Shown here: positions 18,720 through 48,594 of the stretch, one piece after another | How the letters are laid out: every line of letters begins with the position of its first letter | How positions within the stretch are numbered: the stretch's first letter is position 1 | DNA from: an uncultured Rickettsiales bacterium | Lineage (GTDB): Bacteria > Pseudomonadota > Alphaproteobacteria > Rickettsiales > CANDYO01 | Assembly (NCBI GenBank): GCA_964356785.1 | Contig: CAYHIS010000001.1 | Span: forward strand, 208,998 to 272,997 | DNA length: 64,000 nt | Direction of reading: 5' to 3' | Notes under the pieces: generated by a model | Databases searched by the model: none | What the model was told of the DNA's origin: nothing | What the model saw: the letters and a program-made list of their open reading frames with translations, nothing else | Translations under genes and position numbers: made by a program

Positions 18720-18993
18720 CTTTATGAATCACCATATTTATGTATGTTTGGTAAGGAATGCCTAGTTTAGAGGCTTTCAATCGCATTACCTCTAGATCGC
18801 GAGGAGCAACTCTAAGAGTAACTGATTTTTTGACTGTAAAATGATTTTTAGCTGCAGCAACCAACTTATCGATCATAATTTTTTCTTTAGCTGGTTCCAA
18901 TCTTTGGCAAAGCTCAAAATTATCTTCTAGCTCTTGTTCGTATTCATCCAGCTCAACATCATATGGATCGTATGCTTGAATTTGTTTTTTCAT
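18703..18993 (-). CDS. BrnA-like CopG/RHH antitoxin
   Basis: The C-terminal KKSVTLRVAPRDLEVMRLKASKLGIPYQTYINMVIHK is the BrnA/COG3514 pattern. I place the start at ATG 18993 (MKKQIQAY) because a GGAG SD and a consensus promoter lie just upstream. The tracked start at 19047 falls inside that promoter. Confidence 0.65.
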   Translation of the reverse strand: MKKQIQAYDPYDVELDEYEQELEDNFELCQRLEPAKEKIMIDKLVAAAKNHFTVKKSVTLRVAPRDLEVMRLKASKLGIPYQTYINMVIHKDASVF

Positions 18994-19018
18994 AATATTT
19001 AATCTCCAATTTGTTGTG

Positions 19019-19047
19019 AGTATAAACAAATGTATTAACAATGTCAA
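19019..19047 (-). promoter_or_regulatory. sigma70-type promoter for the brnA/brnT-like pair
   Basis: The minus strand reads TTGACA (19047-19042), a 17-nt spacer, then TATACT (19024-19019). It sits about 25 nt upstream of the ATG at 18993. Confidence 0.55.
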
Positions 19048-19103
19048 TATTATTATTTACAAAATTATAAAGATATTAGTTGCCTTTATAGGGTTGGCTT
19101 GAA

Positions 19104-21515
19104 TTAACTTGCCTTAGCAACCGGTTTATCTAGCATATTATTTAAATCGTATAATCTAAGAGCTTTGTTAATTTCTGGAATTACATGTTTCTTTTGATAA
19201 GGTTTTCTTATGAAGCATACTATCCCTAAATTAAATGCTTTTATTATTTCTTCTTCATCTAAACTTGCAGTTTGAAGAATTACAGGAATTTTTGCAAGCT
19301 CCGGATCATTTTTAATGTCGGCAAGTAAATTTAGTCCATAAATATCTGGCATCATTAAGTCTAATAATATCAATGAAATATCATTAGGATGTTTCTTTAA
19401 ATACTTAAGGCCCATGTTTCCTGAGTTACATTTAATCAAATTATAATTTGTTTTATTTAATAAGAGCTCCATTGCACTTAAACATATTTCCTCATCATCT
19501 ATAATTAGGATATTTGGTTTATCATGCGCTGGTTCATTTAATAAGGAAGCAGAGTTTCTATTTTCAGTGGAGTATGCGGAAATTGGAATAATAAAATTAA
19601 ACGTCGCTCCTCCGTCTTTGTTATTAAATGCCCAGATTCTTCCATGATGCGCTTTAATTACTTCGTAGCACACTCTCAGTCCAAGCCATTGGTGACTTGC
19701 TTGTTTTTCTGACATTGAAGGTGAAAGTATCGTGGCTACTTCAGCCTCTTTAATACCTTCTCCTTTATCATGAAGGATAAAGTGAATAGCTTCTTGAGAA
19801 GGATTATTTGAATGAGAAAGTTCTGTGCGTGAAATTTGCACCGCTAGAAAACTTAGGTTAGAGCTATTATTAATGGCATTTACAAATAAATTCCTTAAAA
19901 CTTGAGTCATTCGCTCTTTATCAGCATTTATGAAAATAGGTTCTTCTTGGAAAAAATTTATGTTTATATTTTTCTTATGCATATAAAGCAATTTACTTTC
20001 CTCAATAATTTCATTCACTAGATTCACGATATTAAAACTCTCTATATTTAGTTTATCTTGGCCATCTGAAAAATTAGAAAAATCTAATAAATTATTTGTA
20101 AGTGAGAGTAACTTAGAGCTACCTAAAGCTATCTGATGAGTAAATTCTATTCTCATAGGTTCAGTGAGTTCGTTCCAGAAAGATACTAAGTTTTCCACTA
20201 TCGTGACCATGCCTTGAAGAGGTATTTTAATCTCATGACCTAATTGATTAATAAAATCAGTTTTCGTCTGTACTAATTTCTTTAATTCTTTAGTGCGTTC
20301 ATTAACTTGATTTTCTAGTCTCAAATTAGATAGGGCTAAATTATTATTCACTTGAGATAATTCTAAGGTTAATTCTCTTTCTGTGTTTATTGAGCTTCTA
20401 ATCTTTTCTAAAGCATTAGCAATAAGTTCTGCCTCTTTAGTATTAATATCAAGAGGCATTGAGGCTAACATATCTCCATTTGATAACTCGGACGCTACTT
20501 TAGATAAAAGAAGAAAGGGGGATAATATGGATTTATAAAATATTAAACTAAGCACAGAAATTACTAATACAAGCAGTAATAATTCATATTTATAAGATAA
20601 TATATTATGTATAAAATCCTCATTTGTAGGATTTGATTTGGATTCAATTATAAGAGAAAAAGGCGCGGTTAGCTTATTTATATAAAAACTTCTGTCTTTT
20701 GAAGCTAGTACCTGTTGGTTGGTTATTTCATTTGACGTATTGTAAAAATTATTTTGTTGTTTTGGATGTTTGTTAGAGCGCTTGCTTGATATTTTTTTAT
20801 GCTCAGAATAAACAGAATTTTCCTTTAATTTTAGAAACTCTGTAAGATTAAAATTTTTAGATTTAAAAACAATCTCATTATCCTTTGTGTGGATCAAAGC
20901 ATATGAGAATCTTTCCTCATAAATATTTTTAGATATGTAATCAACCACGTATTTTAAGTCTAATGTTGTTAATATACTACCTAAATAATCACCTTTTTTG
21001 TTAGCTATGCCCATTACTATAGATAAAATATTTTCCTTATCATTAAAATTAAAAAATAATTTAAATGGCATATTCTTAGAAGCTTTTAGATTGTCAATAT
21101 AATTTAGGTCTTTTGGAGCTTTGTAGATTTCCTTATTACTAACTATCGCTTTATTATTTTCATTAATCCATGTTAGAGATTGTATAAAAATAAGATGTTT
21201 ATAATGGTCTTCGCATAATGATGAAAAATATTTTTGCATAAGCTGATAATTTTCATAATGTTTTTCCTGGATAATATATTGCCCTATCAATTCTAACTTT
21301 TCTTCGCTATGGATGAATGCATCATTTAAAGTTTGCTGAATATTATAAGTAAATAGATCTAAATTATTTTTAAATAAGTTTATTTTTGTTCGATGTATTG
21401 TGAAAATGGTTATCATTATAATCGCTAAAGACAGAATAACAACCAAGCTAACGAACCTATTAAAAACAGAGTAGTTTTTGTCTTTTATGGTAATCACTGC
21501 GCGTCCCCTTTTCAA
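19104..21515 (-). CDS. hybrid sensor histidine kinase / response regulator, paralogue 2
   Basis: 803 aa. N-terminal TM, large extracytoplasmic sensor region, second TM, H-box GHEIKIPL, N-box NLFVNAINN, G1 DKGEGI, a degenerate G2 (HQWLGL) and a receiver domain with DLMMPD. The tracked start is TTG, so the start is uncertain. Confidence 0.85.
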   Translation of the reverse strand: MKRGRAVITIKDKNYSVFNRFVSLVVILSLAIIMITIFTIHRTKINLFKNNLDLFTYNIQQTLNDAFIHSEEKLELIGQYIIQEKHYENYQLMQKYFSSLCEDHYKHLIFIQSLTWINENNKAIVSNKEIYKAPKDLNYIDNLKASKNMPFKLFFNFNDKENILSIVMGIANKKGDYLGSILTTLDLKYVVDYISKNIYEERFSYALIHTKDNEIVFKSKNFNLTEFLKLKENSVYSEHKKISSKRSNKHPKQQNNFYNTSNEITNQQVLASKDRSFYINKLTAPFSLIIESKSNPTNEDFIHNILSYKYELLLLVLVISVLSLIFYKSILSPFLLLSKVASELSNGDMLASMPLDINTKEAELIANALEKIRSSINTERELTLELSQVNNNLALSNLRLENQVNERTKELKKLVQTKTDFINQLGHEIKIPLQGMVTIVENLVSFWNELTEPMRIEFTHQIALGSSKLLSLTNNLLDFSNFSDGQDKLNIESFNIVNLVNEIIEESKLLYMHKKNININFFQEEPIFINADKERMTQVLRNLFVNAINNSSNLSFLAVQISRTELSHSNNPSQEAIHFILHDKGEGIKEAEVATILSPSMSEKQASHQWLGLRVCYEVIKAHHGRIWAFNNKDGGATFNFIIPISAYSTENRNSASLLNEPAHDKPNILIIDDEEICLSAMELLLNKTNYNLIKCNSGNMGLKYLKKHPNDISLILLDLMMPDIYGLNLLADIKNDPELAKIPVILQTASLDEEEIIKAFNLGIVCFIRKPYQKKHVIPEINKALRLYDLNNMLDKPVAKAS

Positions 21516-22648: not shown

Positions 22649-22811
22649 ATACCAATCCTCACCCATAATTGAACGTTTAGAATTTGAGGTTTGAGTATTA
22701 TACAAATAAGAAAAAAGCTGAGAATATTGGTTATATTCAATGGTTTTTTATTTTTGGAGAATACCAAAAATCGAATTAATAAATGTTCAATTATGGGTGA
22801 GGATTGGTATT
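22649..22811 (+). mobile_element. MITE-like element, family A, copy 1 (163 bp)
   Basis: Perfect 26-bp terminal inverted repeats ATACCAATCCTCACCCATAATTGAAC. The whole element recurs, reverse-complemented, at 48433-48594. Confidence 0.85.
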
Positions 22812-22894: not shown

Positions 22895-24430
22895 ATGCAG
22901 ACCAAAATAAATGAAATCTTAGAAGAAAAAAGACAAATGGCAAGACTTGGCGGGGGTATAAAGAGAATAGATACTCAACATGCCAAGGGCAAGCTTACAG
23001 CAAGAGAAAGAATTGAGATTTTATTAGATACCGATTCTTTTGAAGAATTTGGAATGTTTGTTGAGCAGCGTTGTACAAATTTCGAAATGGAGAAAAACAA
23101 TTATCCAGGAGATGGTGTAGTTACCGGTAGCGGAACTATCAATGGAAGATTAGTTTATATTTATAGTCAAGATTTTACCGTGTTAGGCGGGTCTTTAAGC
23201 GAGACTAATGCTAAAAAAATATGTCAAATCATGGATATGGCCGTGAAGATGGGGGTTCCAGTCATTGGAATTAATGATTCAGGAGGAGCAAGGATCCAAG
23301 AGGGTGTTGATTCTCTTGGTGGATATGGTGAGATTTTTCAACGTAATGTAGATGCTTCTGGTGTTGTTCCGCAGATTTCACTAATCATGGGACCATGTGC
23401 TGGTGGTGCTGTATATTCTCCTGCTTTAACAGATTTTACTTTTATGGTTAAAGGCTCCTCTTATATGTTTGTTACGGGGCCTGATGTTGTAAAAACAGTT
23501 ACTCATGAAGATGTGAGTCAAGAAGTGCTTGGTGGCGCTTCTACGCATGCTACAAAAACAGGAGTAGCAGATAAAGCATTTAACAATGATGTGGAGGCTT
23601 TAATCCAGATTCGTCGTTTGTTTGATTTTCTTCCGCTTTCTAATAAAGCGCCCTTGCCAGAGAAAATAACTCAAGATCCAGCTGACAGAGTAGAGATGTC
23701 ATTAAACACTTTGGTTCCTAGCAATCCAAATAAACCTTATGATATGAAGGAATTAATATTAAGAATTGTTGATGAAGGAGACTTTTTTGAGCTTCAACCA
23801 GATTATGCAAAAAATATAATTATTGGATTTGGGTATATGCAAGGTCGTTCTGTTGGCTTTGTTGCAAACCAACCAATGCACTTGGCTGGATGTTTAGACA
23901 TAAACGCTTCTGTAAAGGCTGCTCGTTTTATTAGATTTTGTGATGCTTTTAATATACCCATCGTAACTTTAATCGATGTTCCAGGGTTTTTGCCAGGAGT
24001 TAGCCAAGAACATAATGGTATAATAAAGCATGGAGCTAAATTGCTATATGCTTATGCAGAAGCTACAGTACCTAAGGTTAGCGTTATTACTCGTAAGGCT
24101 TATGGTGGGGCTTATATAGTTATGAACTCTAAACATCTTCAAGGTGACCTTAACTACGCTTGGGGCAATGCTGAAATTGCAGTGATGGGAGCAAAGGGAG
24201 CTATTGAAATTTTATATCGTGATAAATTATCTGATAAGGAATTTATTGAAGAAAAAATAAATGAATATCAAAATAAATTTACCAATCCATACGTGGCTGC
24301 TTCACGAGGTTTTATAGATGATGTAATACGTCCTCAAAACACCAGATGGCGAATTTGCAGAGCATTATCAATGCTTACTAACAAGCAAGTTACAAAACCA
24401 TGGAAGAAACATGATAATCTTCCTCTCTAA
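22895..24430 (+). CDS. pccB: propionyl-CoA carboxylase beta subunit (carboxyltransferase)
   Basis: 511 aa. Collinear with PccB / methylmalonyl-CoA carboxyltransferase ([32 protein letters not shown]). Confidence 0.92.
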
Positions 24431-33689: not shown

Positions 33690-35057
33690 ATGCTTAATGA
33701 TAAAAAAACTATTTTTGCTCTTGCTACAGCGCCAGGAAAATCTGGAGTTGCCGTTATTAGAATTTCAGGACCAGATGCAGTTAACTCTATAAAATCATTA
33801 ACTAAAGGATCTGCCTTAAAACCCCGTCAGGCTACTCTCAGAAACCTTATTAATCCTAAAACACAAGAATTAATAGACAAGGCAATTATTATATACTTCC
33901 CTGGCCCAAATAGTTTCACAGGAGAAGATATTATAGAATTACATATACACGGTAGTAGAGCAGTTATCAATATTCTAATTAAGCTTCTATCTGATTTTAA
34001 CAATTTTCGTATAGCTAATCCAGGTGAATTTGCAAAAAGATCATTTTTAAATGGAAGAATGGATCTAACAGAAGCCGAAGGATTAAGTGATTTAATTGAA
34101 GCAGAAACATTAATTCAACAACAGCAAGCCGCACGTCAAATGCAAGGAGAATTAAGCGAGTTATATGATAATTGGAAGATGAAATTGATAAAGATGTTAG
34201 CTTTAATTGAAGCATACTTAGATTTTCCAGATGACGATATTCCAGATGAAGTAATCTCTGAGGTTAATAATGAAGTTGAGTATTTAAAAAATGAACTTGC
34301 TTTGCATTTAAATGATCACCGCAGAGGAGAGATTTTAAGAAATGGAATTTATGTGGCTATACTTGGTTCACCTAATGTAGGAAAATCAAGTTTATTAAAT
34401 TATTTAGCTAAAAAAGATGTGGCTATAGTTTCAAATATAGCTGGAACTACTCGAGATGTTATAGAAGTGAATTTAGATTTGGCAGGATATCCTGTTACAA
34501 TAGCAGATACTGCAGGAATCAGAGAAAGCCAGGATCTAATAGAGAAAGAGGGTATAACAAGGGCTCTAAGAAAAGCAGAAGATGCAGATATTAAAATTAT
34601 TATGTTAGCAGCAGATGATGACTCCTCCTACAAAATTAAAGCAATGATGGATGATAATACAATTATAATAATGAATAAAATCGACCTTCGTCATGTTGAA
34701 ACGATAGCCGAAACATCCAGAGATAACCATACTGGATCCTTCGGTTGCACTCAGGATGACGTTTTAGCAGTATCTGTAAACCAAAATATAGGATTAGATT
34801 TATTCTTAGAAAAACTTACAATGCTAATTTCTGAGAAATTTTCTCCATCCAGTGATCCGGTGATTACACGAGAAAGGCATAGATATCATATAAAAGAATG
34901 CTATGAAGCTTTATCTTTCTTTGATCTTAATAAGCCGTTAGAACTAGCTAGCGAAGATTTAAGAATTGCAACAAGAGCTTTAGGAAAAATAGTTGGAGTT
35001 ATTGATGTAGAAACTATTTTAGATGAAATATTCTTGAAATTTTGTATAGGTAAATAA
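33690..35057 (+). CDS. mnmE: tRNA modification GTPase MnmE, carrying an in-frame palindromic-element insertion
   Basis: N-terminal TIFALAT, G1 GSPNVGKSS, G3 DTAG, G4 NKID, C-terminal FCIGK. The segment RHVETIAETSRDNHTGSFGCTQDDV between G4 and G5 is encoded by repeat family D. Confidence 0.93.
   Translation: MLNDKKTIFALATAPGKSGVAVIRISGPDAVNSIKSLTKGSALKPRQATLRNLINPKTQELIDKAIIIYFPGPNSFTGEDIIELHIHGSRAVINILIKLLSDFNNFRIANPGEFAKRSFLNGRMDLTEAEGLSDLIEAETLIQQQQAARQMQGELSELYDNWKMKLIKMLALIEAYLDFPDDDIPDEVISEVNNEVEYLKNELALHLNDHRRGEILRNGIYVAILGSPNVGKSSLLNYLAKKDVAIVSNIAGTTRDVIEVNLDLAGYPVTIADTAGIRESQDLIEKEGITRALRKAEDADIKIIMLAADDDSSYKIKAMMDDNTIIIMNKIDLRHVETIAETSRDNHTGSFGCTQDDVLAVSVNQNIGLDLFLEKLTMLISEKFSPSSDPVITRERHRYHIKECYEALSFFDLNKPLELASEDLRIATRALGKIVGVIDVETILDEIFLKFCIGK
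34689..34761 (+). repeat. RPE-like palindromic element, family D, inside the mnmE coding frame
   Basis: CGTCATGTTGAAACGATAGCCGAAACATCCAGAGATAACCATACTGGATCCTTCGGTTGCACTCAGGATGACG. Same block order as the intergenic copy at 11081-11150. The reading frame is maintained through it. Confidence 0.8.
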
Positions 35058-47299: not shown

Positions 47300-47302
47300 A
47301 TT

Positions 47303-47427
47303 ATACCAAAACCCATTTTTAGTGATGCAAATGAATTTTACGAATCTCGGCTGTGCTCACGTAGTAATCTACGCTGCGCATCCTCGTTCTTAAATCCACG
47401 TGCCTGATTAAAAATGGGAAATGGTAT
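47303..47427 (+). mobile_element. MITE-like palindromic element, family B, copy 1 (125 bp)
   Basis: ATACCAAAACCCATTTTTA...TAAAAATGGGAAATGGTAT. Recurs at 60091-60192. This copy has an extra 23-nt apical segment (CTCACGTAGTAATCTACGCTGCG). Confidence 0.8.
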
Positions 47428-47587
47428 TACTCCCTCCTGAAACTCGCTTATACATCGCTCTCTTTAAGAATATTAAAATAAATTAACTTTTCTTAAACTT
47501 TTTTCTTGAATAGTATTTCGTTATAGTTTACATATTATGATTATTGAAATTATTAATAATGATTAACGATTTAGAAGGAAAAGAATT

Positions 47588-48432: not shown

Positions 48433-48594
48433 ATACCAATCCCAGCCTATAATTGAACATTTATTAATTCGATTTTTGGCATTCTACAAAAATAAAAAAG
48501 CATTAAATATAACCAATATTTGCAGCTTTTTATATTTCCGTATAATATTCAAATCTCAAATTCTAAATGCTCAATTATAGGCTGGAATTGGTAT
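48433..48594 (-). mobile_element. MITE-like element, family A, copy 2 (162 bp, inverted relative to copy 1)
   Basis: Aligns end to end with the reverse complement of 22649-22811 (well over 80 percent identity by eye). Terminal repeats are ATACCAATCCCAGCCTATAATTGAAC and GCTCAATTATAGGCTGGAATTGGTAT. Confidence 0.85.

Follow-up and report, generated by a model that had tools for sequence, protein, structure and literature searches.

The Rickettsia palindromic element (RPE) RPE-1 is reportedly a palindromic repeat of about 100–150 bp that is translated within proteins, and REPINs and the GTAG type of repetitive extragenic palindrome (REP) are said to be mobilized by RAYT transposases. The class of REPs that carry a CGTC tag also takes in Neisseria dRS3. 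Here, we describe a 73-nt palindromic element that lies in frame in mnmE, the gene for the tRNA-modification GTPase MnmE, in an uncultured Rickettsiales bacterium. The DNA that we analyzed, referred to below as the window, is a stretch of 64,000 nucleotides (assembly GCA_964356785.1, contig CAYHIS010000001.1, positions 208,998–272,997 of the forward strand). We consider the 73-nt segment very probably to be a dimer of CGTC-tagged REP units, because the anatomy of its arms fits the published definition of this class and because a covariance model derived from arms that occur in unrelated bacteria detects these five arms in the window and no others: two in the 73-nt segment and three in an intergenic spacer.

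As defined by Di Nocera, De Gregorio & Rocco (2013, BMC Genomics 14:522, PMC3733652), a CGTC-tagged REP has an unpaired CGTC tag (variants TGTC and CCTC), a stem of 8–9 bp whose first two pairs are A-T and then T-A, a loop of 4–5 nt and a tail that fits CCA, and the units occur mostly as inverted dimers. These REPs were reported from five phyla in 2013 and are commonest in Alphaproteobacteria, including Rickettsia and Wolbachia; in R. conorii, CGTC-1 is RPE-6 and CGTC-4 is RPE-4 (PMC3733652). Most are intergenic and lie downstream of open reading frames (ORFs), with occasional in-frame dimers that encode 20–30 aa. Several of the intragenic dimers in Additional file 3 of that paper start with 'RH' (CGT CAT), and the in-frame examples include RHPREGGDPANLGDHDESQLDPRLRGG (from TruB of E. 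litoralis) and SFLRKQES...LDSRFRGND (from a penicillin-binding protein of R. conorii); the diversity of the proteins so decorated was taken as an argument against functional constraint (PMC3733652). RPE-4, -6 and -7 share the signature ATGAC and insert at solvent-exposed sites, and for their same-site inserts the choice between a hotspot and a single shared origin was left open (Matsutani et al. 2013, PMC3767692). According to the same analysis, RPE-1 has no ATGAC signature and differs from them in origin (PMC3767692).

The ORF that carries the element in the window matches the MnmE model of NCBIfam (NF003661) with an E value of 7.8e-176, and the PDB sequences matched by its product in phmmer are the MnmE entries 1xzp, 9hip, 3geh and 3gee. 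As the initial annotation had claimed, an element of 73 nt, with the sequence CGTCATGTTGAAACGATAGCCGAAACATCCAGAGATAACCATACTGGATCCTTCGGTTGCACTCAGGATGACG, is inserted in frame between NKID, the G4 motif, and VLAVSV, the strand with G5. It begins at codon 334, and its product, RHVETIAETSRDNHTGSFGCTQDD (residues R334–D357), starts with 'RH' (CGT CAT) like several published in-frame dimers. The gene and the parts of its insert, with E values for the arms, are as follows.

33690..35057, plus strand: mnmE ORF, 455 aa, intact (NCBIfam NF003661 and a 29-sequence alignment)
34689..34761, plus strand: probable CGTC-type REP dimer, 73 nt, in frame; codons 334–357 (RHVETIAETSRDNHTGSFGCTQDD) and the first base of V358
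34689..34720, plus strand: left arm, with tag CGTC (34689–34692), stem-loop ATGTT...AACAT (34693–34716) with only a 5-bp outer stem, and tail CCAG (34717–34720); E 0.0045
34721..34731: spacer between the tails, AGATAACCATA
34732..34761, minus strand: right arm, read on this strand as CGTC-ATCCTGAGTGCAACCGAAGGAT-CCAG; E 1.2e-5

All G motifs are present in this MnmE, which also keeps each of the invariant columns of the 29-sequence alignment, among them G1, G3 and G4 residues and the CIGK at the C terminus; the gene looks functional. Its frame is open throughout the element, and the other two forward frames of this copy contain stops. Only an in-frame, stop-free copy could persist at this position, which argues for translation of the element-derived segment.

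The element also occurs outside coding sequence. In addition to the mnmE copy, we observe a second full dimer and a solo arm that share a 201-nt spacer between the minus-strand ORFs 10397–11014 and 11216–11758. The full intergenic copy had been placed at 11081–11150; it is real, although it starts one base later, at 11082, and has a half copy beside it at 11048–11076.

11082..11150, plus strand: intergenic full dimer, with left arm CGTC-ATGTTGAACGCAACAT-CCAG, a 13-nt spacer, and right arm (minus strand) TGTC-ATCCTGAGGCTTTAGCCGAAGGAT-CCAG
11048..11076, minus strand: solo arm of the right type (half copy), CGTC-ATCCTGAGTAAAACGAAGGAT-CCAT; E 6e-7

The solo arm adjoins the full dimer directly upstream, giving a cluster in the order minus, plus, minus. 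Read in the mnmE frame, the intergenic dimer has a TAA in its right-arm loop.

The mnmE and intergenic dimers are the same heterodimer, GTT-type on the left and CCT-type on the right. They have identical tails and spacers of related length, 11 and 13 nt; with the two 4-nt tails added, the stems stand 19 and 21 nt apart. All five arms in the window have AT...AT stem ends, a complementary inner triplet (GTT/AAC or CCT/AGG) and the terminal ATGAC/GTCAT signature; the tag is CGTC in four and TGTC in one, and the tail CCAG in four and CCAT in one. The left arm of the intergenic dimer (11086–11101) forms a 6-bp stem with a 4-nt loop, and the other arms have five outer pairs, then mismatches, then two or three inner pairs. 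The inverted-repeat arms of the initial annotation are present, with inner arms that extend beyond ATCCAG/CTGGAT: CCGAAACATCCAG pairs with CTGGATCCTTCGG with two mismatches. The left arm in mnmE retains an inner stretch, ...CGAAACAT, which the intergenic copy no longer has and which is seen in GTT-type arms of other bacteria; neither full copy descends from the other. The shared heterodimer make-up, tails and related spacers are what would be expected if the dimer were the unit that is copied, as with REPINs.

Several lines of evidence indicate that the repeat is not a chance resemblance. The core 13-mer CTGGATCCTTCGG, allowing up to two mismatches, has five matches in the window versus 0.38 expected. 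The mnmE copy folds at −27.4 kcal/mol as RNA (z = −5.06) and at −12.4 kcal/mol as DNA (z = −3.15), in keeping with the palindrome first proposed. Further evidence comes from the covariance model, R1, which was built from 70 non-redundant arms of unrelated bacteria (alignment A2) and run against the whole window with filters off. The proposed pairs form in 95.5% of the cells of A2, and two of them covary without being imposed by the selection pattern: pair 13–25 is GC in 55 arms and AU in 10, and pair 14–24 is CG in 35, GC in 13 and UA in three. R1 matches exactly five arms in the window, with E values from 6.1e-7 to 0.017:

11047–11077, minus strand: R1 match, E 6.1e-7
11118–11151, minus strand: R1 match, E 3.3e-6
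34731–34762, minus strand: R1 match, E 1.2e-5
34688–34721, plus strand: R1 match, E 0.0045
11081–11106, plus strand: R1 match, E 0.017

The next match, a candidate sixth arm at 23696–23730 (E = 2.8), showed no convincing hairpin on inspection. With a relaxed hairpin finder that allows mismatches, arms were no more numerous than in shuffled sequence. Searches of Rfam, with the whole window at gathering thresholds and the two element regions at permissive thresholds, returned nothing relevant, and searches of the literature for strings of the element sequence returned primers only. Readings of the CTCAGGATGAC motif as box C/D, as hammerhead-like or as a 16S 5′ end were rejected from the sequence.

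In its tag (CGTC or TGTC), its A-T then T-A stem start, its CCA tail and its inverted dimers with outward tags and a short spacer, the window element resembles the CGTC-tagged REPs, and its host, like some of theirs, belongs to the Alphaproteobacteria and the Rickettsiales. It differs from them in its loops, which are irregular and span 4–14 nt rather than 4–5 nt. The arm subtype in the window is ATCCTGAG...CGAAGGAT / ATGTTGA...AACAT, as set against the text descriptions of the published families CGTC-1 to CGTC-4. Because its stems are only 5–6 bp or interrupted, and because the arms of the mnmE copy fold poorly alone, we file the element under the CGTC superfamily, neither under a numbered family nor as an RPE proper. 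The suggestion that it represents an analogous and possibly independent family is not upheld, as its arms carry the features of a class that includes RPE-4 and RPE-6 (PMC3733652).

With RPE-4, -6 and -7, the window element shares the terminal GTCAT/ATGAC and a position in frame within housekeeping genes. Published inserts of RPEs are solvent-exposed; the one described here sits in a length-variable connector. As regards in-frame insertion into a variable segment, the parallel drawn earlier with RPEs holds. The host lies outside the genus Rickettsia: identity between its MnmE and the one from a Rickettsia endosymbiont is ~49%, and the nearest named homolog of its MnmE, at 68% identity, comes from a metagenome-assembled genome (MAG) labeled 'Rickettsiales bacterium'. 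The insert peptide differs from the published RPE peptides VIPAKAGI, LDSRFRGND and WIPWSNHGMT. RPE-1 is likewise a palindromic repeat translated as part of a protein, but it is much longer. Like REPINs, the window element is a non-autonomous doublet of two inverted hairpin units and a spacer, and its two copies agree in the make-up of the doublet, as they should if the doublet moves as a unit; unlike REPINs and GTAG REPs, it has the tags CGTC and TGTC, not GTAG. It is neither a GTAG REPIN nor a classical miniature inverted-repeat transposable element (MITE). The kind of element is already known, and mnmE, which is not among the host genes listed in PMC3733652 or PMC3767692, is a new host case.

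We measured the connector segment of MnmE, starting with the N of NKxD and ending one residue past the G5 serine. The best matches to this MnmE besides itself are 438–448 aa long with 65–75% identity. In the 29-sequence alignment, the orthologs have an unrelated connector of 8–12 aa in place of the 25 aa of the window protein, and the insert peptide is absent from the 28 aligned and 119 surveyed MnmE homologs; the repeat is not native MnmE sequence, as had been proposed. Three relatives with 68–72% MnmE identity keep the gdh–mnmE synteny and have no insert. From NKxD to G5, the window protein has 35 aa and the 119 homologs have 15–40 aa. Without the 24 element-encoded residues, only 11 aa are left, fewer than the minimum of 15 aa among those homologs. 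The native connector has therefore been lost, in agreement with the earlier suggestion of replacement, and the 24 element-derived residues appear to serve as the connector now.

We built an AlphaFold2 model of the window MnmE on the 29-sequence alignment (mean pLDDT, the predicted local distance difference test score, of 80). In this model the G domain is intact, with β5 at residues 324–329, a weak helix at 337–344 and β6 at 358–360. The pLDDT falls below 50 at residues 336–355; the only other internal segment with such low values is 245–256, which we interpret as switch I. The G4-to-β6 connector of Ras-like G domains lies on the face opposite the switch regions. HMMER places the insert opposite the 18-aa connector of Thermotoga maritima MnmE. 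Removal of the element at the mRNA level was considered and rejected: the frame is open, and removal would leave the connector too short.

We propose that a heterodimeric master element, with a GTT-type left arm and a CCT-type right arm, was copied into the DNA for the MnmE connector between G4 and β6/G5. The two inverted units of such a CGTC dimer, with their tags outward, would let the whole element fold as one long hairpin. The insert may have survived through the combination of one stop-free forward frame and a loop of variable length. The native connector of 8–12 aa was lost, by a deletion that would have come with the insertion or later, the net gain being ~15 aa, and MnmE would tolerate the new, largely unstructured connector. 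We put the probability of this sequence of events at about 0.8. We infer that the element-derived segment is translated, that its presence is selectively nearly neutral and that the dimer arrived by transposition.

Several observations weigh against this proposal. No target-site duplication was found in the flanks of either full copy (GACCTT|...|TTTTAG for mnmE and GGCCCT|...|GCAGAC for the intergenic copy), and no dedicated transposase is known for CGTC REPs (PMC3733652). The stems in the window are 5–6 bp or carry GA/GA-type interruptions, in contrast to the clean 8–9 bp of the published CGTC REPs. Taken singly, the arms of the mnmE copy fold as DNA no better than shuffles (−0.8 and −1.5 kcal/mol); good folding in this copy is confined to the whole dimer. 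Only five arms at two loci are present within the 64-kb window. The RPE-domain models of NCBIfam, a library whose RPE content is unconfirmed, gave no match to MnmE or to the insert peptide at E values up to 10. Translation and function of the insert-bearing MnmE are themselves predictions.

Among the other explanations, the one that we take most seriously, while still thinking it unlikely, is that the insert has been co-opted, with its peptide or its mRNA hairpin under selection and conferring a lineage-specific property such as altered G-domain dimerization, altered contact with MnmG or altered mRNA stability. With the native connector gone, the insert would be structurally required, and the weak helix predicted at 337–344 falls where the 18-aa connector of T. 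maritima has a loosely similar pattern, VEKINEEEIKNKLG; the same loop has also been reshaped by palindromic inserts in three other lineages. Yet those inserts and the present one encode four unrelated peptides, the model has low confidence across the insert, and this insert is confined to one species-level lineage. The published variety of decorated proteins likewise speaks against functional constraint (PMC3733652).

An error of assembly, in which a repeat was mis-spliced into mnmE, or a decayed mnmE pseudogene, strikes us as highly improbable. The window does come from a low-coverage MAG (the European Nucleotide Archive (ENA) contig is labeled cov 5.66), and repeats are a classic source of chimeric assemblies, but both flanks are contiguous mnmE with the frame kept, and the MnmE protein and arm sequences are identical in the ENA SPAdes contig and in the Logan contig. 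The ORF is intact, with the invariant residues of G1, G3, G4 and CIGK present, and independent cases of inserts in MnmE occur in other assemblies. We give even less credence to a lineage-specific expansion of a native loop, with the intergenic likeness due to chance or to an mnmE fragment copied into the spacer. This idea could draw on the natural range of 15–40 aa between NKxD and G5 and on the HMMER alignment of part of the insert with the T. maritima connector; it is effectively refuted by the R1 result, in which both arms match a model from unrelated bacteria. In addition, a Gastranaerophilales MAG contains an arm that agrees at every position, over 29 nt, with one arm of the intergenic copy, and the intergenic locus has an extra solo arm and no other mnmE sequence. 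Insertion of a CGTC dimer with loss of the native connector remains our preferred account.

The connector has been entered more than once. Independent palindromic inserts between G4 and G5 are present in four of 120 MnmE proteins, that of the window and three of the 119 homologs. Three of the four are CGTC-type dimers with unrelated stems, and one is a G+C-rich palindrome of another kind. All start one or two codons after NKxD and each replaces the native connector, and none of these four proteins has an insert of at least 8 aa at any other internal site. The three inserts in homologs are the following.

1144–1218 (P0102 / L246): CGTC dimer CGTC-ATTGCGGA-CTTGA-TCCGCAAT-CC ... GATTGCGGATCGGGGTCCGCAATGACG, with peptide RHCGLDPQSP...GVRND
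about 1110–1200 (P0094 / L247): TGTC/CGTC heterodimer
about 1070–1165 (P0091 / L248): G+C-rich palindrome GTAGC...GCTAC, with PLLLGEG-type peptide, −57.8 kcal/mol

The insert of P0102 folds as DNA at −27 kcal/mol (z = −7.2), and the G+C-rich palindrome has a core motif that is found again in an unrelated contig from Chloroflexi. Since the four inserts show no relationship in sequence, they speak more for a site that is permissive or hot than for one ancient insertion. They also resemble RPE-4, -6 and -7 in their repeated insertion at the same locus of orthologous genes, and so bear on whether the same-site inserts of those elements mark hotspots or one origin. A stronger version, in which the connector is a recurrent landing site for hairpin repeats through a target preference of the mobilizing machinery and not through mere structural tolerance, seems to us doubtful; if true, it would make mnmE a natural system for finding how CGTC repeats move. 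Separately, the 3′ end of the element in P0102 appears to supply part of the β6 strand (VRNDVSSKTGEG).

The window insert is a clean, well-delimited case, from an uncultured lineage that is Rickettsiales-like but lies outside Rickettsia, in which a repeat-derived peptide replaces a structural connector of a conserved GTPase. In annotation, such inserts should not be taken for native domains or for frameshift errors.

Arms of the same type are widely distributed. We scanned collections of genomes with the loose pattern GGATCCTTCGN{3,15}TCAGGATGA and of metagenomes with a stricter pattern, and all counts given here are among the matches listed. The arm type is present in well over 100 unrelated genomes and metagenome contigs. 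Its general form is a left arm (C/T)GTCAT-NNN-GAGCGAAGCGA-N'N'N'-ATCC, a variable spacer and a mirror-image right arm that ends in ATGAC. The internal triplet covaries with its partner (CCT 341, TCT 67, TGC 12, TCC 10, CCC 8, GCT 6 and GTT 4, among arms preselected for complementarity). At the fetched loci, 111 arm pairs are convergent, with tags outward, versus 24, 11 and 11 for the remaining orientations; spacer lengths have their mode at 33–36 nt. GTC is preceded by T in 245 arms and by C in 135, a CCA tail is found in 206 of 401 arms, and the interrupted stem layout of the window is the commonest among these 401 arms from other bacteria. The 29-nt arm of the Gastranaerophilales MAG (L029) is identical to window positions 11121–11149.

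Closer to the host, the relative L243 (GCA_025210695.1; 68% MnmE identity) has six CGTC arms in 21 kb, arranged in two clusters:

17552–17770 (L243): intergenic cluster of three long-stem arms (13-bp stems, CCAG tails), minus-plus-minus
18937–19329 (L243): intergenic cluster of three long-stem arms (13-bp stems, CCAG tails), minus-plus-minus

Their layout is the same as that of window 11047–11151. Since this relative carries long-stem CGTC arms, the repeat class is present in the wider clade of the window organism. The matches in the collections suggest a distribution of CGTC-type repeats that goes far beyond the five phyla of 2013, and the breadth of the arms, some of them nearly identical across phyla, sharpens the question of the mobilizing enzyme.

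Arms of the form GTCAT-NNN-GAGCGAAGCGA-N'N'N'-ATCC with a CGTC or TGTC tag (L003–L242) are seen in MAGs labeled Acidobacteriota, Verrucomicrobiota, Chloroflexota, Clostridia, Patescibacteria, Bacteroidota (Hymenobacter), Fibrobacter, Gemmatimonadota, Myxococcales, Coxiellaceae and others. A Pseudobacteriovorax MAG (L106) and a further locus (L171) have head-to-tail arrays of arms, with periods of 87 nt and 79 nt, that resemble the 'large clusters' reported for Neisseria and Wolbachia.

The window holds other repeats as well. A self-palindromic, AT-rich element of 162 nt occurs in two copies that are ~85% alike, both intergenic (22649–22810 and 48433–48594), and ends ATACCAATCC...GTTCAATTATGGGTGAGGATTGGTAT; it resembles a MITE, or a long family of the RPE type, and seems to have no relation to the CGTC element. 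A second palindromic family, with the ends ATACCAAAACCCATTTTTA...TAAAAATGGGnnnTGGTAT, is intergenic at 47301–47432 and 60086–60194; its copies differ in length, one having an extra central segment, and it has ATACCAA/TTGGTAT termini in common with the 162-nt family. Finally, a tandem duplication of ~640 nt at 11210–12488, with 71–94% identity between units, corresponds to the adjacent paralogous minus-strand ORFs 11216–11758 and 11866–12387 and adjoins the intergenic CGTC cluster.

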